DNA from: Candidatus Iainarchaeum sp.
GTDB lineage: Archaea; Iainarchaeota; Iainarchaeia; Iainarchaeales; 0-14-0-20-34-12
NCBI GenBank assembly: GCA_030649345.1
Contig: JAUSKK010000008.1
Location: forward strand, 1 to 32,000
Length of the DNA stretch: 32,000 nt
Direction: 5' to 3'
Shown here piece after piece: positions 2,816 through 25,191 of this stretch (positions are counted from its first letter, which is position 1; each line of letters opens with the position of its first letter). The notes beneath the pieces are model-generated. The model was not told where the DNA came from, made no database searches, and saw only the letters and a list, made by a program, of their open reading frames with translations. The translations under genes were made by a program, and so were the position numbers.

Positions 2816-2889
2816 GGGCCCGTAGCTCAGCCTGGCAGAGCATTGGACTTTTAATCCAAGTGTCAAGGGTTCAAATCCCTTCGGGCTCG
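2816..2889 (+). tRNA. tRNA-Lys (anticodon UUU)
   Basis: Manual cloverleaf. Acceptor GGGCCCG/CGGGCTC, D-arm GCTC/GAGC, anticodon stem TTGGA/TCCAA with loop CTTTTAA, T-arm AAGGG-TTCAAAT-CCCTT, discriminator G. No encoded CCA, no intron. Confidence 0.9.
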
Positions 2890-2910
2890 TTTTAATTAAA
2901 AATTTAATGT

Positions 2911-2929
2911 ATCCGATTTTTTTCGGATC
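2911..2929 (+). other. Spacer hairpin ATCCGA-TTTTTTT-TCGGAT abutting the 5' end of tRNA-Phe
   Basis: 6-bp inverted repeat ending one nt before tRNA-Phe position 1. Possibly a processing or termination signal between the two tRNAs. Confidence 0.3.
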
Positions 2930-3003
2930 GGGACTGTAGCTCAGCCTGGAAGAGCAATCGGCTGAAGACCGGTGTGTCGCCAGTTCAAATCTGGCCAGTC
3001 CCA
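2930..3003 (+). tRNA. tRNA-Phe (anticodon GAA)
   Basis: Manual cloverleaf. Acceptor GGGACTG/CAGTCCC, D-arm GCTC/GAGC, anticodon stem ATCGG/CCGGT with loop CTGAAGA, T-arm GCCAG-TTCAAAT-CTGGC, discriminator A. T-runs follow. Confidence 0.9.
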
Positions 3004-3066
3004 CAAAATTTGTTTTTAATAAAATTTAGTTTTTTTTGTTTTTAAAAAATAAAAAATTAGAATAAT

Positions 3067-4198: not shown

Positions 4199-6076
4199 TT
4201 AAATTCGTTCGACTTTTTTGACTCCATTAACTTGAGTTAATTGTTGAGCTATACTTTCAAGAATCTCTGGATTGGATATTTCGATTGTGAATGTGCATAT
4301 AATTGTGTTTCTTGTTTTGCTTTGGGCTTCGGTTGCTTTAACTTTCACTTTATTCAATGCATTAAGTAAATCTAAAAGAATGCTGGTTCTGTCTTCGGCA
4401 GTGATTTTTATTTTGACTTGCATGTTTTTAGTGCTTGCAGACCATCCTACTTCCAGTATTTTAGTCAACGGCAGTTTTTGAATGTTTTTGCATCCAATTC
4501 TATGAATAATTATTTTGCGTTTGGTTGTTTTGATTCCAATGATTTCTTCTCCTTGTAATGGATTGCAGCATTTTCCGAATTGAATGTTTTTGTCGCTGGT
4601 TGTTTTGGTTATTTTTCTTTGAGTTTTTTTTTCTTTAGCTGGAAGAATTAATCCCAGTTTTTGGCGTATTTTGTCTCTGGCTTTTTTAGATTGTACAAAC
4701 AATAACCATTGCCGTTTAAATTGTGCTTTTTTGGATTTCATTATTTTGACAATATCTCCATTTTCCAGTAAATGATCCAAGGTCACAATTTTGTTGTTGA
4801 CCAAAGCTTTTTCGCAAAAATCTCCTAAATCGGTGTGAATGGCGTATGCAAAATCTACCGGAGTCGATTTTTCAGGTAAAATAATAATTTCGCTGTTAGG
4901 GGTTAATACAAAGATTTCACTTTTTCCAAACCCAATGTTGATGGGGGCAATTAAATTTTCAAGTTTTTGTTGTCTTTGAAATTCAACCAATTGTTTGGCC
5001 CAAGTTAATTGTTTGTCAAATAAGGGTTCTTTTTCAAATTTTTTGTATTGCCAATGTGCAGCCAATCCTTCTTCTGCTGTGCGGTGCATATCCCATGTGC
5101 GAATCTGCACTTCAATAGGCTTGCTTTTGTATTCTATGACTGTGTGAATGGATTTGTATTGGTTGGGTTTTGGGTTCGCGATATAATCATCAAAGTATTT
5201 TTCATTGGCATAGCTTTTGAATTTAGTGTATAGTAATCCCAGTATTTTATAACAATCTTCTACACTATGACAAATGATTCTAGACCCCAATAGATCGTGG
5301 AGTTCGTTTACTTTTTTGTTTTGATTTTTCATTTTTCTATAAATTCCGGAAAAACTTTTAGGTCTGCACACAGTTGTGGCTGGGATATGAGCTGTTTTGA
5401 GTGTTTTTTCTAATTCTTCTTTGAATTCACTTAATAGTTTTTCTCGAAAGCTTCTTTTTTCTTTGAGTTCATTTTTGATTTGTCTATAAATTTCCGGATT
5501 GCTGATTTTAAATGTTAAGTCTTCCAGTTCCCATTCAATATCATACGCTCCTAGTTTGTGGGCAATGGGTACATGAATTTCTTGGACGCGTTTACAAATT
5601 TCCGGCAATTTACTTTTTTCTAAATTAGTATAATTTCTTAAATGATCCAGCATGGCTGCCAATTGAATGAATATTGTGCGAATATCTTTGGCAGTTCCCA
5701 ATACTACCTGGGTTAATAGTTTGTTGGATATTTTTCCGCGATTTTTTCGTTCAATTTGATCAATTTTTGCTACTTGCTGTACTATGTCTGCAACTTCTGT
5801 TCCGATTTTGTTTTTAATTTCTTCAATTTTTTTATCTAAATCTACTGTATTGTCCAATAAATCGTGCAATAAAGCACTGGCAATACTTTCGCTGTCTAGT
5901 TTGAGTTCAGTTAAAATATATCCTGTGTTTAATGCGTGTTGAATTTGTTTTTCTGCGTTGGGTGTGTACTTTTCTAGAATTTGAATAGCTGTGTCTATTT
6001 TTTTTATTTCGGATTTAAGTATGTATTCTTCTGCTTTTTCTTTGATTTGGTTTGCATTAACTTCTTTGTATTGCAT
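4199..6076 (-). CDS. Long RelA/SpoT homolog (HD hydrolase + (p)ppGpp synthetase + TGS + ACT-like C-terminus)
   Basis: 625 aa. HD motif ALLHDLLDNT. Synthetase blocks LLGSRIICHSVEDCY, ANPKPNQYKSIHTVI, VQIRTWDMHRTAEEGLAAHWQYK. TGS-like FVLTPNSEIIILPEKSTPVDFAYAIHTDLG. C-terminal ACT-like segment. Confidence 0.85.
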   Translation of the reverse strand: MQYKEVNANQIKEKAEEYILKSEIKKIDTAIQILEKYTPNAEKQIQHALNTGYILTELKLDSESIASALLHDLLDNTVDLDKKIEEIKNKIGTEVADIVQQVAKIDQIERKNRGKISNKLLTQVVLGTAKDIRTIFIQLAAMLDHLRNYTNLEKSKLPEICKRVQEIHVPIAHKLGAYDIEWELEDLTFKISNPEIYRQIKNELKEKRSFREKLLSEFKEELEKTLKTAHIPATTVCRPKSFSGIYRKMKNQNKKVNELHDLLGSRIICHSVEDCYKILGLLYTKFKSYANEKYFDDYIANPKPNQYKSIHTVIEYKSKPIEVQIRTWDMHRTAEEGLAAHWQYKKFEKEPLFDKQLTWAKQLVEFQRQQKLENLIAPINIGFGKSEIFVLTPNSEIIILPEKSTPVDFAYAIHTDLGDFCEKALVNNKIVTLDHLLENGDIVKIMKSKKAQFKRQWLLFVQSKKARDKIRQKLGLILPAKEKKTQRKITKTTSDKNIQFGKCCNPLQGEEIIGIKTTKRKIIIHRIGCKNIQKLPLTKILEVGWSASTKNMQVKIKITAEDRTSILLDLLNALNKVKVKATEAQSKTRNTIICTFTIEISNPEILESIAQQLTQVNGVKKVERI

Positions 6077-6879: not shown

Positions 6880-8058
6880 ATGGATATTGCTTCAATGAAT
6901 GTTCGTTCTTTGTTAAAAAAATCGTTTCCTCAAGTGGATGCCGATGTTTCTTTAGCAGATGCTATTGCTAAAATGGTTGGTGTTTTTGAACAAGAAGTTT
7001 TGGTTTTTGATAATGGAAAATATTTAGGAAATATTTCTCCTTGGTTTATTTTGAAATCGCGTGCCGATGTCAGTAAAGCTAAAGCACGTAATTCTGCAGT
7101 TGTTTGCCCTAAAGTTTCTTTGGATGATTCAGTGGTGAGTGTAGCTCAACGAATGTTAGATTCCAATGCTAAAGTGCTGCCTGTTTTTTCGGGTTCTTTT
7201 TTTGAAGGTACGGTGGGTGCTTCGGAGATTATTAAACAAATGGCTTCAGTAGAAGAATTAAGTAACATAAAAGTCAGTAGTTTGATTGCGTATCCTTTAA
7301 CTGTTCAAGAAAATGAAAGTGTTGATAAAGTGATTAAAGTTATGCGTTCTAAAAATGTAGAACGTTTGGTTGTTTTAAATAAAGATAAAGTTTCAGGCAT
7401 GTTGTTTTTTGATGATTTGGCAAAAAAGTTTTTGTTGAAAAAAACAAGCGACTCTAAAGCATATGTTTCTGGTTTTGGAAAAGGAACTTTGCGAAAAAAT
7501 CCAAATATTCCGAATGTTTTAAAGTCTCCAATTTCAAATGAATTGTCTGCTGTTTTTCCAACTGCGGATGTTTCAGATTCTTTGAAGAAAGTTTTGGTTA
7601 ATTTTAATCCCAGAACTGGAATTGTGGTTACTTCCAATGGTGTCTTGAAAGGTCTTTTAACAACCCATACTTTGCTGAAAGTTTTGGCTTCTGTGAAAGT
7701 AAGCACTCGAAATATTCAGTTTAGTAATTTTCCTGTTTTGGATGAAATTGATAAAGCCAAAGCAGATAAAACCATTGAAACTGCTTATGACCGAATTGCT
7801 AAATTGGTAGGGCAAGAATTTACTTTGCATATTCATTTTAAGCAGCATCAAAAACAAGGTTCTAGAATTAATCATTCCATTCATGCAAAAGTTTTGTCTG
7901 CAAAACATAATTTTCAAGCAGATAAAGCAGCTTGGAATTTTTTGACTGCTTTGCAAGAAACTTTGAGTGCTTTGGATCAAGAAATGAAAAAGAAACTAAG
8001 ATCAGTTTCTTCAAAACAAAAAGCTTCTGGTTTTCAAAAAAGCCGCCGAAAAAAGTAA
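6880..8058 (+). CDS. Four-CBS-motif protein with C-terminal HPF/RaiA (S30AE)-like domain
   Basis: 392 aa. Four CBS-like repeats in the first ~270 residues. Residues ~275-370 fit a beta-alpha-beta-beta-beta-alpha pattern resembling ribosome hibernation factor HPF/YfiA (NIQFSNF..., TLHIHFK, HSIHAKVL, WNFLTALQETLSALDQEMKKK). The domain call is by eye only. Confidence 0.6.
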   Translation: MDIASMNVRSLLKKSFPQVDADVSLADAIAKMVGVFEQEVLVFDNGKYLGNISPWFILKSRADVSKAKARNSAVVCPKVSLDDSVVSVAQRMLDSNAKVLPVFSGSFFEGTVGASEIIKQMASVEELSNIKVSSLIAYPLTVQENESVDKVIKVMRSKNVERLVVLNKDKVSGMLFFDDLAKKFLLKKTSDSKAYVSGFGKGTLRKNPNIPNVLKSPISNELSAVFPTADVSDSLKKVLVNFNPRTGIVVTSNGVLKGLLTTHTLLKVLASVKVSTRNIQFSNFPVLDEIDKAKADKTIETAYDRIAKLVGQEFTLHIHFKQHQKQGSRINHSIHAKVLSAKHNFQADKAAWNFLTALQETLSALDQEMKKKLRSVSSKQKASGFQKSRRKK

Positions 8059-8224
8059 ATCAACCCGCGTGCGCAACTTAAACTTTGGTTTAAGTGCGCT
8101 TTCGAACTCAGAGTTCGAAACACGGGTTGGTGGCACGCAGTGCAATCAAAATCTGTTGATTTTGATGCACATAAAACGAATACGTTTTATTGTGCTTTCG
8201 TTACACTTCAGCACTGCTGTTTTT
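8059..8224. ncRNA. Unclassified highly structured, GC-richer RNA-like block (two tandem multi-hairpin modules)
   Basis: Module 1: outer stem CAACCCG (8061-8067) / CGGGTTG (8123-8129) enclosing hairpins 8071-8099 and 8101-8119. Module 2: GCAC (8133-8136) / GTGC (8192-8195) enclosing hairpins 8140-8170 and 8171-8190. T-run at 8220-8224. Strand unresolved: it could be the CBS-gene 3' UTR on plus, or a separate minus-strand RNA behind a TATA-like AATATTTAAAA. Confidence 0.4.
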
Positions 8225-8242: not shown

Positions 8243-8524
8243 AAAAGTGTGAGCATGCCAAAACATGGGGCAATGGTTGAAGAAAACGTTGTTCTTAAAC
8301 AAAGCTCCATGCTGCGAACTCATAACATTGCTTTTTTGAATTACCGTTGCTTTCTTCCGAATCTGGCGGGTTGGCTTCAATAAGGCAATCCATGAGGACA
8401 GCACTTCGTTGCCGTTGCTTAAGCGTGTTCTACAATTCATTGTTCGCTGTTCTAGCTTCGGTGCACTCTAAAGCAGGTTTAGTGTAACACAGAACTGCTA
8501 CCTCTGCCACCTAGCTCACATAGA
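8243..8524 (-). ncRNA. Signal recognition particle RNA (7S/SRP RNA)
   Basis: The minus strand carries the helix-8 apex CCAGAUUC-GGAA-GAAAGCAACGGUA, compared with the conserved CAGGNCC-GGAA-GGNAGCA(A/G)C. Alu-like 5' domain with two hairpins whose loops GUAGCAG and CCUGC are complementary. Terminal helix UGUGAGC/GCUCACA. TATA box upstream and an oligo-T tract downstream. Ends are approximate. Confidence 0.8.
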
Positions 8525-8540: not shown

Positions 8541-8550
8541 GTTTTTATAG
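8541..8550 (-). promoter_or_regulatory. TATA box (CTATAAAAAC) for the SRP RNA gene, overlapping the Nudix stop codon
   Basis: Lies about 20-25 nt upstream of the first paired nucleotides of the SRP RNA on the minus strand. Confidence 0.5.
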
Positions 8551-9018
8551 TTTGATTTTGTCTGCTTGAATGTCTTTAAATAAATTCTTTAAATTGATGG
8601 TGATATTTTCTGGGATTTCTTCGAATTTAAACCATTTCATTTCACTGAATTTGTTTGGTTCCATTATTTTAGGAATTCCTTGCACGATTTTTGTTTTAAA
8701 AATTGGATTCACCCAATGCTGCAACCAGGGTTCCGGTTGGTCGAACGTGTTGCCTTCGCTGTTGCTTGACAGCACATTTTCTGGTGGAAAATGATCTACT
8801 ACTTTTAGTAATCGTTCGACTTCAATCTTGACTCCAATTTCTTCCATAACTTCTCGTTTGAGTGCTTGTTCTAAGGTTTCTCCGAATTCTACTTCTCCGC
8901 CTGGGAGCCCCCATTGGTTGGGCTCGTTTTTGACTTGGTTTGTTCTGTGTAAAAATAAGATTTCTTTTTTTTCGTTTTGAATTAAGGCTCCTACTCCTAC
9001 TTTGATTACTTTTTTCAT
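8545..9018 (-). CDS. Nudix hydrolase
   Basis: 157 aa. Nudix box GLPGGEVEFGETLEQALKREVMEEIGV. Confidence 0.8.
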   Translation of the reverse strand: MKKVIKVGVGALIQNEKKEILFLHRTNQVKNEPNQWGLPGGEVEFGETLEQALKREVMEEIGVKIEVERLLKVVDHFPPENVLSSNSEGNTFDQPEPWLQHWVNPIFKTKIVQGIPKIMEPNKFSEMKWFKFEEIPENITINLKNLFKDIQADKIKL

Positions 9019-11672: not shown

Positions 11673-11762
11673 CTAATCTTCTTTTTCGCAACCGTAACCC
11701 GGTTGGTGTGTTAGATCATCTTCGTTTCACTCGATGATCTTGATTCAGTCTTCTTTTTCGTA
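11673..11762 (-). mobile_element. Stop-codon-adjacent two-hairpin insertion with flanking duplication of the gene end (copy E1)
   Basis: Minus sense: TACGAAAAAGAAGACTGA (gene end, 11745-11762), then a 54-nt block, then TGCGAAAAAGAAGATTAG (11673-11690). The block is ATCA, hairpin AGATCATC/GATGATCT with loop GAGTGAAACGAA, a 7-nt spacer, and hairpin CAACCG-GGTTA-CGGTTG. Confidence 0.5.
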
Positions 11763-11852
11763 TTCGATTTCAAATTTTGGCAAAGGTGTAATGCTGGCGC
11801 GTACTGTGAGTTTGCTTTTTGTTTTTCGTTTTCGTGTTTTTTTGTTTTCCAT
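11745..11852 (-). CDS. Small ORF, 35 aa (MENKKTRKRKTKSKLTVRASITPLPKFEIEYEKED)
   Basis: AAGGAG/GGAG Shine-Dalgarno upstream of the ATG. AT-rich TATA-like tract follows a hairpin plus T-run terminator downstream of radA. Its last codons are the sequence duplicated by element E1. Confidence 0.45.
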   Translation of the reverse strand: MENKKTRKRKTKSKLTVRASITPLPKFEIEYEKED

Positions 11853-11965
11853 TGCTCCAACTCCTTTGCTGACTAAAACTTAGAATTAATTTTTAAAAAA
11901 ATAAAAATAGTGATGCTGAAATAAAATGCAAACATCACGTACTATCAACTACGATTGGAGTTGAA

Positions 11966-12940
11966 TTATTCTTTGTCTTTTGCGTCTTCTACACCGTTTT
12001 CGGTAATGGTGTAAATACATTCTCCGTCCGGTAAGCTGGGACTGTCCACCAGTTTTGCAATTCGTTTGCTTTCTTTGCTTTTACGCAAATACAACCGAGT
12101 CTTAGCCGCATGTCCTACAATGTTTCCTCCAATTGGTGCTGTGGGATCTCCGAATAAAATATCAGGGCGGTCCATAACTTGATTGGTAACCAAGACTGCT
12201 ACATTACTCATTTCAGCTAACTTGGCTAGAACACGTAAGTGTTTGTTGAGTTTTTGCTGCCGATCCGACAAAGTTCCTCGTCCAATAAACTCTGCTCTGA
12301 ATTGGGAAGTTAAGGAGTCAACAATTACAAGTTTAATATTTTTTTCTTTTACTAATTCACTGGCTTTTTCTGCCAGAATACTTTGATGATCTGCATTGTA
12401 TGCACGAGCTACAAAAATGTTTTTTAAAACTTTTTGTGAATCCAATTTTAAGTATTCAGCTACTTGAATAATTCTTTCGGGTCGAAATGAGTTTTCGGAA
12501 TCAATCCATAAACAATTCCCATTCAATCCGCCTTTTTCTACAGGCAATTGTACTGTGACAGCTGTTTCAAAACATAACTGAGTTTTACTGGAACCAAATT
12601 TTCCATATACTTCTGTAATGCTTTGAGATTCTACTCCACCGCCAATTAATTCATCCAATGCTTTGGATCCGGTAGTAATTTTTCCAATAAGTTTTCTTTT
12701 TTCAGCTAATTTATCTGCACTTTCAAAACCCATGTCTAAAGAATCTCGCGCTGCTTTGATTGCTTTGGTTGCAGTAATTTCTCCCAATCCAGCTGCTTCC
12801 ATTAATTCTGCTGGGCTGGCAATTGCAATGCTTTCTAAAGTTTTGTATCCTGCAGTATTTAGTTTTTCTGCTGCCTGAGTTCCAACTCCAGGTAAATCGC
12901 TGACTTCTTTTATGTCTGTTGGTATTTCTGTTTTCGCCAT
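11966..12940 (-). CDS. radA: DNA repair and recombination protein RadA
   Basis: Start taken at MAKTEIP (ATG at 12940), preceded by GGAGGA. HhH N-terminal domain (LPGVGTQAAEKL), Walker A GKFGSSKT, Walker B LVIVDS. Confidence 0.9.
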   Translation of the reverse strand: MAKTEIPTDIKEVSDLPGVGTQAAEKLNTAGYKTLESIAIASPAELMEAAGLGEITATKAIKAARDSLDMGFESADKLAEKRKLIGKITTGSKALDELIGGGVESQSITEVYGKFGSSKTQLCFETAVTVQLPVEKGGLNGNCLWIDSENSFRPERIIQVAEYLKLDSQKVLKNIFVARAYNADHQSILAEKASELVKEKNIKLVIVDSLTSQFRAEFIGRGTLSDRQQKLNKHLRVLAKLAEMSNVAVLVTNQVMDRPDILFGDPTAPIGGNIVGHAAKTRLYLRKSKESKRIAKLVDSPSLPDGECIYTITENGVEDAKDKE

Positions 12941-13368: not shown

Positions 13369-14700
13369 TCACGCGATTTCAATGATTTCTCGGACTGTGA
13401 ATTCCATTTCTTGATTGAATGGATTTTGCCGTACATTGCCTGTGACAATAATTTCTTTTCCTTCCAGCTTTTGGTTGAGTTCAGTAATAATGCTTTCCAC
13501 ACTTTTTGTTTTCAGTTCTTTTTCCAAGTCATTGGTTTTCATATTTAAAAGTTCTTCAGCTTGTTGGTCAAAAAAAGTTGCTTTAATGCTGCTGGTTCCA
13601 TCGTCGACTTCTAAAGAAATTACTGGCACAAGTAAAGGTTCTTGAATTAAACCGCATTTTTCGCACGAGTAATTATTTTCGCTTTTTTCTAGTTTTCCGC
13701 GGCATTTTCCGCACAATAAGAAATGTAATTTTCCAGATAAGACTTGGGTTATTTTGGCTCGAATTTCTTTGAATTTTTCGCCTACAATTAATTCTGCAAT
13801 GCTTTTTCGTTCAATTTCTTTTCTGAATTCTTTTAATAATGGAATTTTTTTTCCATGGCCAATTTGTTGTTCTATTTTTCCAATTAAGCCTAAGTGTAAT
13901 TCTAATTCTTTGAGTCCTTTTTTAGTATAGGCTCCAGATATTTTGACAATGTCTCCAATTCGAACTAAATTTACTTGGGTAGTGCTTTCGTTCCATGCAG
14001 TACACGTAATGGTTTTGGTTTCATCTCCGATTTCAAAGTTTTGAACTTTTCCTTGTTTTCCGTTTTTGTCAAATTCCCGCAAAGGATAAATTCGGACAAT
14101 TCTTCCAGTAACTTGAAGGTTTTGCTGGTTTTCTTTTAAGCTTCCTAGATTGCTGACCAAGAGTTCGTTTCTGTTTTTAGCTGAACTATTATGTGAATTC
14201 TCTTTTGAATTTTTTTCGATAATTTCTGCAGTAAATGCATTTCCGATATTGAGCTGATTTTTTCCCAAGTATTCGGTTACAAAACAATTGGTAAGTTTGA
14301 GGGTGTCTCCGTTTTCTACTTTTTCAAGTTTTTGAATTTGGTCATTCCAGAATGTGCAGGAAATTTCTCCGCTGCCATCGCTGATTAAAATTGTTTTTCG
14401 TTTTCCTATTTTTTCTCCTTTTTTGAATTCTTTTTCTGGAAAAACAGCTTGTACAATTCCTTGAATTTCCAAGCCTCTTAATCCATTGCGTAATTGTGCA
14501 ATGCTGAGTTTTTCACTGGCATATTTTTCGGTTTCAATTCCTGCGCCCAATTCTCTGGCAACCAAAAAAGCAGCGCCTTGTTCTGTGAGTAATCCTGCAA
14601 ATTTGCTTCGTTTTTCTTGAACTATGGCGTGTATTTCAGAAATAGATTTTCCTGTTTTTTGTACAATAGTTTGAACAATTTCTTCAGCACTTTGTTGCAT
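13369..14700 (-). CDS. Replication protein A-like ssDNA-binding protein (multiple OB folds + zinc ribbon)
   Basis: About 443 aa from the ATG at 14700; the ORF track begins at a TTG at 14724. Repeated OB-fold-like segments and CGKC...CEKC zinc ribbon, as in euryarchaeal/DPANN RPA. Confidence 0.65.
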   Translation of the reverse strand: MQQSAEEIVQTIVQKTGKSISEIHAIVQEKRSKFAGLLTEQGAAFLVARELGAGIETEKYASEKLSIAQLRNGLRGLEIQGIVQAVFPEKEFKKGEKIGKRKTILISDGSGEISCTFWNDQIQKLEKVENGDTLKLTNCFVTEYLGKNQLNIGNAFTAEIIEKNSKENSHNSSAKNRNELLVSNLGSLKENQQNLQVTGRIVRIYPLREFDKNGKQGKVQNFEIGDETKTITCTAWNESTTQVNLVRIGDIVKISGAYTKKGLKELELHLGLIGKIEQQIGHGKKIPLLKEFRKEIERKSIAELIVGEKFKEIRAKITQVLSGKLHFLLCGKCRGKLEKSENNYSCEKCGLIQEPLLVPVISLEVDDGTSSIKATFFDQQAEELLNMKTNDLEKELKTKSVESIITELNQKLEGKEIIVTGNVRQNPFNQEMEFTVREIIEIA

Positions 14701-20207: not shown

Positions 20208-21278
20208 ATGCTTGAAATTGATTGTTCGAAAATAAATGAAGCTGGCGGCCAAATTTTGCGCACTTCTTTGGGTTTAAGTGCTCTTTTACGGAAAGAGGTT
20301 AAAATTACTCATATTCGTTCCGGTCGTCCCAATCCAGGTTTACAGCCACAGCATTTGGCAAGTGTGAACACTATTGCCAGTATGTGCAGTGCTGAATTAG
20401 AGCAAGCGAATCCCAATAGTAGTTCTTTGGTGTTTAAGCCTGGAAAAATTATTCCCAGTCAATTAAGCGTCAATATTGGTACTGCAGGTTCTCTTTCTTT
20501 AATGCTTCAACAATTGCTGCCTGTTTCTTTGGTTGAAAAAATTGAATTGCGTGCTCAAGGCGGAACCCATGTTTCTTTTTCTCCTTCTATGCATTTTATG
20601 CAAGAAGTTTTATTTCCTCAATTGAAACGAATGGGTCTGCATTTGGATTTAGATTTATTGCAGTTTGGTTTTTTTCCAAAAGGTAATGGACGAATTTTTT
20701 TTACCAGTGAAAAACCTAAGTTGCCTTTGAAGGCTTTAAAGCTTTCCAGTTTAGGAAAACTTTCGTACATTAAATGTTATTCAATTTGTTCGGGTTTGCC
20801 TAGAGAAATTGCTTTTGTTCAAGCCAATAGTGCTTTGAAGTCTTTGCAGAAAAAAATTCCCGACAATGATTTTGAGTTTGTAGAACAAGTGAACGCAACT
20901 CCTACACGCAAAGACACAATTGGAACTGCTTTAGATTTGTTTGCATATTTTGATTCTGGTTTAGTTTTAGCTGGCAATGCTTTGGGTGAAAAAGGAAAGC
21001 CTGCAGAACAAGTAGGCCAAGAAGCCGCAGACAATTTGTTAACTCAATTGGAAGCCCAAAAATCCTGCGATCTCCATTTAGCGGATCAAATTATTCCATT
21101 TTGTGCTTTAGCAAAAGGCGAATCAGAATTACGTGTTTCAAAAATTACGCAACATTGTTTAACCAATATTGAGATTGTGAAATTGTTTTTACCAGAAGCT
21201 GAAATGAGTGTTCACGGAAACTTAAATGAGCCTGGAATAATTAAAATTAAAGGAATTGCTTTTACTGGTTTGCCTTAA
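20208..21278 (+). CDS. rtcA: RNA 3'-terminal phosphate cyclase
   Basis: 356 aa. GGGQILRTSLGLSALL N-terminal block and PGLQPQHL, with typical RtcA length. Confidence 0.85.
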   Translation: MLEIDCSKINEAGGQILRTSLGLSALLRKEVKITHIRSGRPNPGLQPQHLASVNTIASMCSAELEQANPNSSSLVFKPGKIIPSQLSVNIGTAGSLSLMLQQLLPVSLVEKIELRAQGGTHVSFSPSMHFMQEVLFPQLKRMGLHLDLDLLQFGFFPKGNGRIFFTSEKPKLPLKALKLSSLGKLSYIKCYSICSGLPREIAFVQANSALKSLQKKIPDNDFEFVEQVNATPTRKDTIGTALDLFAYFDSGLVLAGNALGEKGKPAEQVGQEAADNLLTQLEAQKSCDLHLADQIIPFCALAKGESELRVSKITQHCLTNIEIVKLFLPEAEMSVHGNLNEPGIIKIKGIAFTGLP

Positions 21279-23141: not shown

Positions 23142-23142
23142 G

Positions 23143-23171
23143 TTATCAGATGTAGTTTAAGGTTCTGATAA
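23143..23171 (+). other. Intercistronic hairpin TTATCAGA / TCTGATAA filling the S19e to PDCD5-like spacer
   Basis: 8-bp inverted repeat with a 13-nt loop. The 3' arm ends 1 nt before the next ATG. Confidence 0.35.
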
Positions 23172-23172
23172 T

Positions 23173-23499
23173 ATGGATGAAAATTTAGATTCATTAAGGC
23201 AGCAGCGCATGCAGCATTTGAAAAAAAATGCAGAAGACAAAAAAAGCCAGCAAGAGCAAGCAATGCAAGCTCAAATGCAAGTGAATGCTTTAATGATTCA
23301 GTATCTAGAGCCGGCAGCCAAAGAACGGTTGAACAATGTAAAATTAATTAATTCAGAATTGTACGGAAAAGTTGTTCAAACTGTTTTGTATTTGGTGAAA
23401 AGCCAAAAATTGAATCGAAAAATAACGGATATTGAATTAAAAAAATTATTAACTTTGGCCACAGGTCAAAAACGAGAAATTAAAATTGTAAGAAAATAA
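23173..23499 (+). CDS. PDCD5/TFAR19-family dsDNA-binding protein
   Basis: 108 aa. Pattern LEPAAKERLNNVKLIN...VVQTVLYLVKSQKL...ITDIELKKLL typical of the family, and the expected position in the conserved archaeal cluster. Confidence 0.75.
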   Translation: MDENLDSLRQQRMQHLKKNAEDKKSQQEQAMQAQMQVNALMIQYLEPAAKERLNNVKLINSELYGKVVQTVLYLVKSQKLNRKITDIELKKLLTLATGQKREIKIVRK

Positions 23500-23580
23500 A
23501 TCAGTAGTGCTGAATGAAATGAAGCACTACGTTCGACCAACCGGAACCCCGGTTGAGAAGTTAAAATTGTAAGAAAATAA
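23474..23580 (+). mobile_element. Stop-codon-adjacent two-hairpin insertion with flanking duplication of the gene end (copy E2)
   Basis: Gene end GAGAAATTAAAATTGTAAGAAAATAA (23474-23499), a 55-nt block (23500-23554), then GAGAAGTTAAAATTGTAAGAAAATAA (23555-23580; 25/26 identical). The block is ATCA, hairpin GTAGTGCT/AGCACTAC with loop GAATGAAATGA, a 7-nt spacer, and hairpin CAACCGG-AACC-CCGGTTG. Confidence 0.55.
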
Positions 23581-24347: not shown

Positions 24348-24366
24348 TGAATTCTTTTGAATTCAT
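24347..24366 (+). other. Intercistronic hairpin ATGAATTC-TTTT-GAATTCAT after L31e
   Basis: 8-bp perfect inverted repeat beginning at the last base of the TAA stop codon. Confidence 0.35.
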
Positions 24367-24380
24367 AATTAGGTAATCCA

Positions 24381-25040
24381 ATGAAATTTACTAAACAATA
24401 TTTGAATTCCAGCCCCTACATTGGCGTATTTGCAGTTACCAGTGAAACGATTTCTTTATTTCCTGCTTTTATTACAAAAAAACAAAAACTTTATTTTCAA
24501 GACATTTTGGGAACAGAAATTATTCAAGGAACTTTAGCAGGATCGCATTTATTGGGTGTGTTTGCTGTTGGATCGCAAAACAAGTTTTTAGTTTCCAATC
24601 TAATTTCAGACAAAGAATTGGATTTTTATAAAAATCAAGGATTGAAATTAGAAGTCTTAAGTGATAATTTGGCAGTTGGAAATTTAATTGCTTTAAATGA
24701 TTTTGGAGCAGTTTGTAGTCCTATTTTTTCCAAAGAAGACATCGCAAAGATTAAATCTTTTTTGGGCACAGAAGTTGTTACTTCTTTGGTTGGAAATCAT
24801 GATCTAACCGGGGCCAGTTGCAAGGCAACCAATGTTGGATTTATTGTAAGTCCTATGGTTACAGAACAAGAATTTAGTGTTTTGCAGAAAACATTAAAGG
24901 TAGACGGAATGCGAACCACAGCCAATTACGGTGATAGATATGTAGGCAATGGATTAATTGCCAATTCAAAAGGCGCAGTGATTGGTGTTCCAACCACAAC
25001 CCATGAAATGATTCGCATAGATGAAGCATTCAGAAAATAG
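24381..25040 (+). CDS. eif6: Translation initiation factor 6 (aIF6)
   Basis: 219 aa. Pentein-repeat pattern (IGVFAVTSE, LLGVFAVGSQN, VGNLIALND, ATNVGFIVSP, VGNGLIANSKG) and the conserved cluster position. Confidence 0.85.
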   Translation: MKFTKQYLNSSPYIGVFAVTSETISLFPAFITKKQKLYFQDILGTEIIQGTLAGSHLLGVFAVGSQNKFLVSNLISDKELDFYKNQGLKLEVLSDNLAVGNLIALNDFGAVCSPIFSKEDIAKIKSFLGTEVVTSLVGNHDLTGASCKATNVGFIVSPMVTEQEFSVLQKTLKVDGMRTTANYGDRYVGNGLIANSKGAVIGVPTTTHEMIRIDEAFRK

Positions 25041-25156
25041 GAATGAAATTTGAAGAGATGTACCACAAAATTTTAAATTTTGCGTATATACAAAATCGAT
25101 GATTTTGTAGTACATCGAAACCGTAGGTTTGGATAGACGAGGCATTCAGAAAATAA
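25017..25156 (+). mobile_element. Stop-codon-adjacent structured insertion with flanking duplication of the gene end (copy E3, larger and diverged)
   Basis: Gene end ATAGATGAAGCATTCAGAAAATAG (25017-25040), a 92-nt block, then ATAGACGAGGCATTCAGAAAATAA (25133-25156). The block starts GAATGAAATTTGAAG, has a 15-position hairpin 25057-25071/25102-25116 with a nested hairpin, then AAACC-GTA-GGTTT (25118-25130). Confidence 0.5.
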
Positions 25157-25191
25157 GAATAATTGAAACTAATATTTGAAAGGTGAAATGT

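Follow-up and report, generated by a model that had tools for sequence, protein, structure and literature searches.

A stretch of 32,000 nucleotides (nt) from Candidatus Iainarchaeum sp. (GenBank assembly GCA_030649345.1, contig JAUSKK010000008.1, positions 1 to 32,000 of the forward strand; hereafter the window), a Candidatus Diapherotrites (DPANN) archaeon, has a G+C content of 34% and contains an archaeal conserved gene cluster in the order S19e, double-stranded DNA (dsDNA)-binding protein, L39e-like, L31e, aIF6, L18Ae, prefoldin and FtsY. Two genes of this cluster, those for aIF6 and the dsDNA-binding protein, and a short open reading frame (ORF) downstream of radA are each followed, directly after the stop codon, by a small structured insert (E3, E2 and E1 respectively) and then by a second copy of their own last codons. 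These inserts, three further copies of the same kind in the window (E0, E4 and E5), and the origin of the duplicated gene ends are the subject of this report.

The aIF6 gene (24381-25040, + strand; 219 amino acids (aa); from the ORF list, PF01912) encodes a protein 100% identical to NCBI MDO8427769.1 (Ca. Diapherotrites archaeon). Its last eight codons (ATAGATGAAGCATTCAGAAAATAG, 25017-25040, +), the working end of the gene, are followed by a 92-nt insert, E3 (25041-25132, +), beyond which they recur as what appears to be a relic end (ATAGACGAGGCATTCAGAAAATAA, 25133-25156, +). The two copies are identical at 21 of 24 positions and differ, proximal against distal, in GAT/GAC, GAA/GAG and TAG/TAA; all three differences are silent, and both copies read IDEAFRK*. 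The proximal copy is the true aIF6 C-terminus, since every homologue of the protein terminates at this residue (...IDEAFRK/R(R/D)); the distal copy is offset by 116 nt from the gene and hence out of frame. The pair was also recovered by a separate repeat search (25012-25044 versus 25128-25160), and none of 500 flank shuffles reached the observed score. The tetranucleotide GAAT follows both copies (reaching 25160 in the distal one), so that the duplication may extend beyond 24 nt to 28 nt. At a locus with a 50%-identical aIF6, no duplicated end lies downstream.

The E3 block is predicted to fold stably (minimum free energy -22.0 kcal/mol, z = -3.8; 0 of 200 shuffles as stable). It opens with the motif GAATGAAATTTGAAG (25041-25055), continues as a 7-bp stem (GATGTAC, 25057-25063, paired with GTACATC, 25110-25116) around two AT-rich hairpins, and closes with a 5-bp terminal hairpin (AAACC-GTA-GGTTT, 25118-25130) directly before the distal repeat.

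The organization at E2 is the same with a shorter insert. The proximal repeat (23474-23499, +) closes the gene for the dsDNA-binding protein (PF01984; 23173-23499), the element itself is 55 nt long (23500-23554, +; fold z = -4.8), and the distal repeat (23555-23580, +) matches the proximal one at 25 of 26 positions. E2 is laid out as AUCA, an 8-bp hairpin (P1) with loop GAAUGAAAUGA, a linker ending in GACCAACC, and a second hairpin (P2, CAACCGG/CCGGUUG). The sole difference between its repeats is ATT (Ile) in the proximal against GTT (Val) in the distal copy. Since the protein of the only close relative (P0032) ends in ...REIKIVRK and thus matches the proximal end, the Ile-to-Val change arose in the distal copy.

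E1 lies on the opposite strand and has the E2 architecture in 56 nt (11689-11744, -), between a proximal repeat CGAAAAAGAAGACTGA (11745-11760, -) and a distal repeat CGAAAAAGAAGATTAG (11673-11688, -) that have three nucleotide differences, located in GAC/GAT and TGA/TAG. Every P1 base pair differs on both sides between E1 and E2, and yet the two are unmistakable homologues, double hairpins of 55-56 nt. The proximal repeat of E1 is the end of an unverified 35-aa ORF rich in Lys and Arg (MENKKTRKRKTKSKLTVRASITPLPKFEIEYEKED, 11745-11852, -), which is preceded by a Shine-Dalgarno-like GGAG and had neither a homologue among 1.8 billion representative proteins nor a Pfam match. With this ORF unproven as a gene, the term 'silent' is equally unproven for the differences at E1.

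Flank-duplication tests were significant for E1, E2 and E3 (p = 0.004, 0 and 0), and when all ORF ends of the window were scanned, no duplicated end of a real gene came up beyond these three. An independent Logan assembly is identical to the NCBI contig, which derives from a metagenome-assembled genome, over 4.8 kb covering both E2 and E3; because the two assemblies agree across both elements, an assembly artefact was rejected as their source. The insertions right after stop codons, flanked by duplicated gene ends, that had been described in a reading of the sequence alone (the sequence-only reading) are thus real at E1-E3. Its anatomy of E3 (aIF6 end, 92-nt block, copy with silent changes only) is exact to the base and its single ATT/GTT difference at E2 is as it stated, while at E1 the structure and the two codon differences hold and their silence hangs on the 35-aa ORF. 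The 'short GC hairpin' with which it closed E3 is present, but is not notably G+C-rich.

The double-hairpin family

The window was searched for relatives with BLAST and with a covariance model derived from an alignment-free set of three, E1, E2 and a trimmed core of E0. The model recognised E2 (73 bits), E1 (69 bits), E5 (32.2 bits, E = 1e-5), E4 (31.5 bits, E = 1.5e-5) and the 5' part of E0 (22.7 bits), giving at least five recognisable copies in 32 kb plus E3; E0, E4 and E5 are three copies beyond those of the sequence-only reading. A 22-nt partial match in the RPA gene (13982-14003) was discarded as ordinary coding sequence.

Members of the family share a stem P1 of variable sequence whose loop is conserved and rich in purines (GA(R)UGAAA(Y)GAA), a linker with ACCAACC at its end, and a palindromic P2 (CAACCxG/CxGGUUG), and the larger members have additional hairpins nested in the loops. 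Across E1, E2, E4 and E5, 96% of pair cells hold standard pairs and nine of the 13 pairs have changed on both sides. None of 500 shuffles matched this, and slid registers were 25-51% paired.

The expanded member E0 (161 nt; 8061-8221, -; fold z = -9.35) aligns with E2 at p = 0; its P1 and loop are E2-like (27 of 30 nt), and P1 and P2 each contain two perfect nested hairpins. Its neighbours are the signal recognition particle (SRP) RNA, just upstream, and a convergent CBS-domain gene, the 3' end of E0 being 2 nt from the stop codon of the latter (8056-8058). E0 may be a small RNA gene of its own or share a transcript with the SRP RNA. We rejected E0 as a guide RNA of TnpB or IscB, given that the adjoining 392-aa ORF is the CBS-domain protein and not TnpB. 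The decayed member E5 (58 nt; 11906-11963, +) has its 3' end 2 nt from the stop codon (11966-11968) of the convergent radA gene.

Unlike these, E4 (54 nt; 8722-8775, -) lies in frame within a gene, a NUDIX gene (8545-9018), where it encodes VLSSNSEGNTFDQPEPWL. This 17-aa segment (a loop of 17-18 aa) is missing in the best PDB homologue, 4dyw, and in eight of nine aligned homologues, being present solely in the window protein and in a 72%-identical relative (P0034); the position is a surface loop of the NUDIX protein. On this comparison E4 reads as an insertion, and as an old one. Its orthologue in the relative (E4', at 444-501 of contig L099) scores 34 bits with the covariance model and has a perfect P1 (GUGCUAUC/GAUAGCAC) and a perfect P2 (CAUCCCG/CGGGAUG), so that two lineages have kept the double hairpin within a coding sequence. 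E4 and E4' are ~79% identical over their 5' halves and only ~52% over their 3' halves. The 3' half of E4 is identical to E2 at 25 of 26 positions (BLAST E = 7.6e-8) and that of E4' is E0-like, which demonstrates exchange or recopying of sequence between members of the family. In the flank test, no duplication was found around E0, E4 or E5.

E3 is probably a composite or 5'-truncated relative of the E1/E2 family, with position and flanks that match. Its start, GAATGAAAT..GAAG, is the family loop motif, and its next 13 nt resemble the 3' strand of P1 and the linker of E1; the 5' strand of P1 is missing. An AACC..GGTT hairpin closes E3, and the CAAAATC/GATTTTG hairpins within it recall the nested ones of E0.

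Position beside stop codons

Five of the six copies have one end 0-2 nt from a stop codon. The sense copies abut theirs exactly (TGA before E1, TAA before E2 and TAG before E3), and the antisense copies are separated by 2 nt, AT between E0 and the TTA of the CBS gene stop and AA between E5 and the TTA of the radA stop. If each copy is placed at random in its pre-insertion spacer (20, 35, 10, 55 and 27 nt), hand arithmetic gives a joint chance of ~4e-5 for this adjacency, a figure inflated by selection against disruptive insertions; coincidence is unlikely. The 5' flanks of the elements (CTGA, ATAA, ATAG, TAAA, AAAT) loosely follow T-R-A or RAAT and do not form one motif. In the sense copies the loop motif reads GAR TGA AAY in frame with the upstream ORF (25041-25049, 23512-23520, and 11732-11724 on the - strand), placing a second in-frame stop (TGA) 1-5 codons past the real one in all three inserts. 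Translation of the distal copies by read-through was rejected on account of these in-frame stops in E1-E3 and of the frame of the E3 copy.

Hairpins directly 3' of stop codons are otherwise rare in the window. Short perfect ones follow the stops of S19e (TTATCAGA...TCTGATAA, 23142-23172) and L31e (TGAATTC-TTTT-GAATTCA, 24348-24365); they are unrelated to the family in sequence and lack a duplication.

The reading we prefer, with a probability of about one half, is that the family is a lineage-specific, non-autonomous hairpin repeat, similar to REP, MITE and double-hairpin elements, which inserts beside stop codons, and that the second gene end is a long, variable duplication arising from the insertion. 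Insertion would occur beside a stop codon, or in frame where the protein has a surface loop, and would yield a long target-site duplication of 16-28 nt, either through filling-in of a staggered break or through template switching. Thereafter the proximal copy would go on serving as the end of the gene, and the distal one would become a relic. The working copy would change synonymously only, through point substitution or through allelic recombination importing linked synonymous changes, and a young relic would have taken few substitutions so far. The duplications measure 16 nt at E1, 26-27 nt at E2 and 24-28 nt at E3, and occur at sense-oriented copies only. The intact, high-scoring E1 and E2 carry them and the decayed or expanded copies do not, which fits duplications that fade with age. 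In distant relatives the same ribosomal-protein operon is tightly packed and free of elements.

The exact abutment of the sense copies might also reflect a route through RNA, in which a small structured RNA would be joined to an mRNA cut at the A-site stop codon of a terminating ribosome, reverse-transcribed and recombined into the genome, with the protected mRNA tail duplicated. Such a route would explain the junction at 0 nt and the sense orientation of E1-E3, as well as the missing duplication at antisense or intragenic copies; the tails, at 16, 24 and 26 nt, are about as long as the 5' portion of a ribosome footprint, and five of the six copies are co-oriented with local transcription. The window also holds a gene for RNA 3'-terminal phosphate cyclase (RtcA; 20208-21278, +), which is relevant solely if RNA end-joining figures in the biology of the elements. 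However, no reverse transcriptase was found in the window, the copies fold equally well on both strands and so favour RNA no more than DNA, and the antisense E0 and E5, 2 nt from their stops, are not foreseen by the model, which by itself also leaves the differences between the two gene ends unexplained. We know of no such mechanism in prokaryotes, and consider this route very unlikely indeed.

The same hairpins might instead be immobile, serving as functional modules of 3' untranslated or intercistronic RNA (3'-end protection, processing or protein binding), with the tail repeats being incidental local duplications. They stand right after stops in both orientations, so that each adjacent mRNA ends in a stable stem; their structure has been kept through compensatory changes, in two lineages even inside a gene; the loop motif is likewise conserved; and its TGA could act in the sense copies as a back-up stop. 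Immobility is nevertheless improbable: related copies occupy unrelated loci, among them a NUDIX gene whose relatives lack the segment, and this requires copying or insertion, while the distant relatives are wholly without the elements. Function and mobility may, moreover, coexist.

Differences between the duplicated gene ends

All seven nucleotide differences between proximal and distal copies over E1-E3 are transitions, and six of the seven (five of the six differing codons) are silent; the TGA/TAG pair of E1 takes two steps, via TAA. Random substitutions in these tails would be silent in 11-29% of cases. In simulations, whose P ranges depend on the transition bias and which address a pattern noticed post hoc, drift confined to the relic gave at most one non-silent codon difference over E1-E3 with P = 0.0001-0.004. 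This null model, on which the silent argument of the sequence-only reading relied, is too strict: changes accrue in the working copy as well, if synonymous ones only. With both copies evolving, the probability that E3 alone shows silent differences only is 0.019-0.067, and the P value for E2 and E3 together, with the E1 ORF excluded, is 0.08-0.25. The differences are, furthermore, clustered (three in E1 and three in E3), and because each cluster may have come as one block, for instance by allelic recombination, they may represent only about three independent events. A bias towards silent change is thus present in the data as had been claimed, and is suggestive rather than established.

The only difference that can be polarised, the Ile-to-Val change at E2, is non-silent and lies in the distal copy, and therefore has the direction expected of a decaying relic. 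At E3 the distal copy holds the G+C-richer synonymous codons (GAC, GAG) in a genome of 34% G+C, and this codon composition mildly favours changes in the proximal copy.

Alternatively, the gene ends might have been imported. An element could move between diverged strains by recombination or homing-like conversion together with a functional gene end, one copy of the pair then being the orthologous end of another lineage, or, in a milder form, allelic recombination after insertion could swap the proximal end for the allele of another strain. In favour of this, the differences are all transitions, mostly silent and including TGA/TAG (P = 0.0008-0.03 under drift models), and they are clustered as imported blocks would be. 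The aIF6 C-terminus is near-invariant among relatives, so that a foreign end would be silent there, exchange among element copies is evident from E2 and E4, and an analogous C-terminal duplication is documented in mitochondria (PMC6279837). Against this stand the size of the inserts, too small for an endonuclease or recombinase, and the lack of either in or near them; the need for three genes each to have its own captured end, with a duplication step still required at every locus; the lack of any donor in evidence; and the sole difference at E2, which is non-silent and derived in the distal copy. We regard imported ends as unlikely.

Selection on both copies would likewise produce a silent bias, if recombination or conversion reuses the distal end, or if constraint acts on the distal copy because it is native leader sequence of the cistron that follows. 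The distal copies of E2 and E3 lie 20 and 35 nt before the next start codon in the ribosomal-protein operon, and direct repeats of 24-26 nt around a hairpin are good substrates for slippage and recombination. The gene table of the closest relative (ENA ERZ27297570; aIF6 73% identical) has a 174-nt spacer after the dsDNA-binding protein gene, versus 101 nt here including E2, and may thus record an insertion at the E2 site; the contig stops 71 nt past the aIF6 stop. Should the E2 insertion be that old, as it might be, the 25/26 identity of its repeats would be hard to reach by drift. Yet a constraint on the 5' leader would not be codon-phased, no gene follows the distal copy of E1, and the distal copy of E2 carries a non-silent change. 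The frequent excision and re-insertion raised as a possibility in the sequence-only reading finds no support: a single Logan contig passes unbroken through E2 and E3, no presence/absence polymorphism being evident in that sample. All told, selection on both ends is very unlikely. The wider proposition that insertion is coupled to expression, whether through RNA joined to ribosome-cut mRNA or through homing-like conversion carrying gene ends, such that both copies have a functional history, is quite unlikely; if true, prokaryotic elements would have a hitherto undescribed means of targeting gene ends harmlessly.

Insertion with a long duplication, which we still prefer, has several observations to contend with. 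No definable DNA-level target motif accounts for the exact abutment to stop codons. The elements have no terminal inverted repeats, and the length of the duplication is not fixed, as it is with classical transposases. Three of the six copies (E0, E4, E5) have no duplication at all, and the 54 nt of E4 fit in frame with no room for one, so that duplication may not be general. No autonomous partner is known. No empty-site allele has been seen at the DNA level for E1-E3, and we infer mobility from the dispersal of the copies. All statistics rest on about six copies, as the family was not found in other genome collections. The membership of E3 is weak: the opening loop motif that linked it to E1 and E2 in the sequence-only reading is indeed shared, but the link is loose, with local alignments to E1, E2 and E0 at p = 0.02-0.08 and a score of 6 bits at which the family covariance model does not recognise it. 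Finally, even with both copies evolving, at most one non-silent codon difference over E1-E3 has P = 0.0008-0.029, nominally significant provided that E1 is counted, and a relic with drift alone does not predict the silent excess unless blocks are imported or the distal copy is constrained.

Known repeat systems and the remainder of the window

Among described repeats, the REP/REPIN sequences mobilised by RAYT, an IS200/IS605-like HUH protein (PMC3116915, PMC2817692), are comparable in being short non-coding hairpin repeats with co-varying stems that occur in many copies and in either orientation after stops. Short, imperfect, extragenic palindromes near gene 3' ends are what we find in five of six copies. 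REP sequences, however, produce no target duplication, as opposed to the 16-28 nt at E1-E3, and are marked by a conserved GTAG head and a RAYT gene, no RAYT being encoded in the window; the elements here, in a DPANN archaeon, consist of two distinct hairpins, and their conserved loop is rich in purines. MITEs are likewise small, non-autonomous and dispersed, as are the copies here (five recognised by the model in 32 kb and one in a relative), and direct repeats flank some of the latter. Assignment to MITEs was rejected because there are no terminal inverted repeats (5' ATCAG.. or ATCAAG.. against 3' ..CGGTT(G), at most CA..TG), the inverted repeats being internal hairpins, and because a duplication of fixed length is not found at every copy (16, 26-27 and 24-28 nt, and none at E0, E4 and E5). 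The IS200/IS605-derived palindrome-associated elements (PATE) insert 3' of a fixed tetra- or pentanucleotide and make no duplication; here the 5' flanks are loosely alike without forming one motif, and three copies have duplications.

Hairpin elements of mitochondria, such as the GC clusters of yeast (e.g. GC42; PMC4478555) and the RHEs of sponges (PMC2800124), are close in form: ~40-60 nt with one or two hairpins and structure-preserving changes. Double-hairpin elements from Allomyces are likewise on record (Paquin et al. 2000, as cited in PMC4478555). The palindromes of the mitochondrial elements merge or nest into composites (PMC4478555, PMC2800124), reminiscent of E0 and E3, and their copies are intergenic and occasionally within genes. 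They differ in being organellar, without sequence kinship to the present family, and duplicated gene ends are not described for them. Rickettsia palindromic elements (RPE) and RU/ERIC-type repeats (PMC2759123) are also palindromic and can lie in frame inside genes, adding peptide as E4 does. They are found in other taxa, have other sequences and are about twice the size. To our knowledge, neither an association with stop codons nor a duplication of gene ends has been reported for them.

The arrangement of working end, insert and relic end is shared with the homing-endonuclease ORFs of fungal mitochondria that carry C-terminal duplications of atp6 and cob; these mobile ORFs supply a new C-terminus, the resident one being left downstream (PMC6279837). 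The two ends can then differ in a way that looks functional, one of them being foreign. A direct repeat of the gene 3' end around the insert is found here too. Integrative elements duplicate the 3' ends of tRNAs or genes at att sites. Such inserts measure kilobases and encode an endonuclease or integrase, in contrast to the 55-92 nt without an ORF in three different genes here; with no such enzyme encoded in the inserts or nearby, an integrative element or homing ORF was rejected. An archaeal bulge-helix-bulge intron was rejected as well, a relaxed scan for the motif in E1-E3 and their flanks having found none joining the repeats. So was a diversity-generating retroelement: the substitutions (T/C, A/G and G/A) run both ways and are not specific to adenines, there is no reverse transcriptase in the window, and the repeats span 16-28 nt against ~100.

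Searches for relatives further afield gave chance matches. Rfam, whose models include self-cleaving ribozymes, C/D and H/ACA sRNAs, SECIS and riboswitches, returned nothing at gathering score in the element regions and only noise (E >= 0.35) in permissive scans, and no C/D or H/ACA boxes, hammerhead core or archaeal SECIS were seen in the elements by eye. Pattern scans yielded 20 chance matches in IMG/VR (some within a 734-aa ORF; 0 for a second viral pattern), 72 in GTDB genomes (all bacterial, mostly the 5' region of one conserved Rhodobacterales locus, and none archaeal), and one chance match, in a coding region, in JGI metagenomes. So far, then, the family is known from this organism and one relative only.

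DPANN archaea have tiny, tightly packed genomes with few described mobile elements, and the family would be a rare case of a repeat family in such a genome. Unusual features are the location 0-2 nt from stops, the long duplication that spares the upstream protein (three cases) and the in-frame copy in an enzyme of two lineages. Should duplication prove to be a regular outcome of insertion, the mechanism would be unlike that of classical transposases; should more copies bear out the silent bias, the elements would be a record of recombination between strains, or of a route selecting for functional gene ends. Intergenic distances are inflated by such inserts, which also leave pseudo-ends that can mislead gene callers and add loops to proteins.

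Among the ~30 ORFs of the window scanned with Pfam, all are housekeeping, with no transposase, reverse transcriptase, integrase or HUH protein. At gathering score Rfam 15 reports three RNAs in the window and nothing else: tandem tRNA-Lys(UUU) and tRNA-Phe(GAA) (2816-3004, +) and the archaeal SRP RNA next to E0 (8247-8521, -; 107 bits). The window also encodes a long RelA/SpoT homologue of 625 aa with HD, RelA_SpoT, TGS and ACT domains (4199-6076, -). Long enzymes of this type are unusual in archaea, and this one may be a bacterial acquisition.

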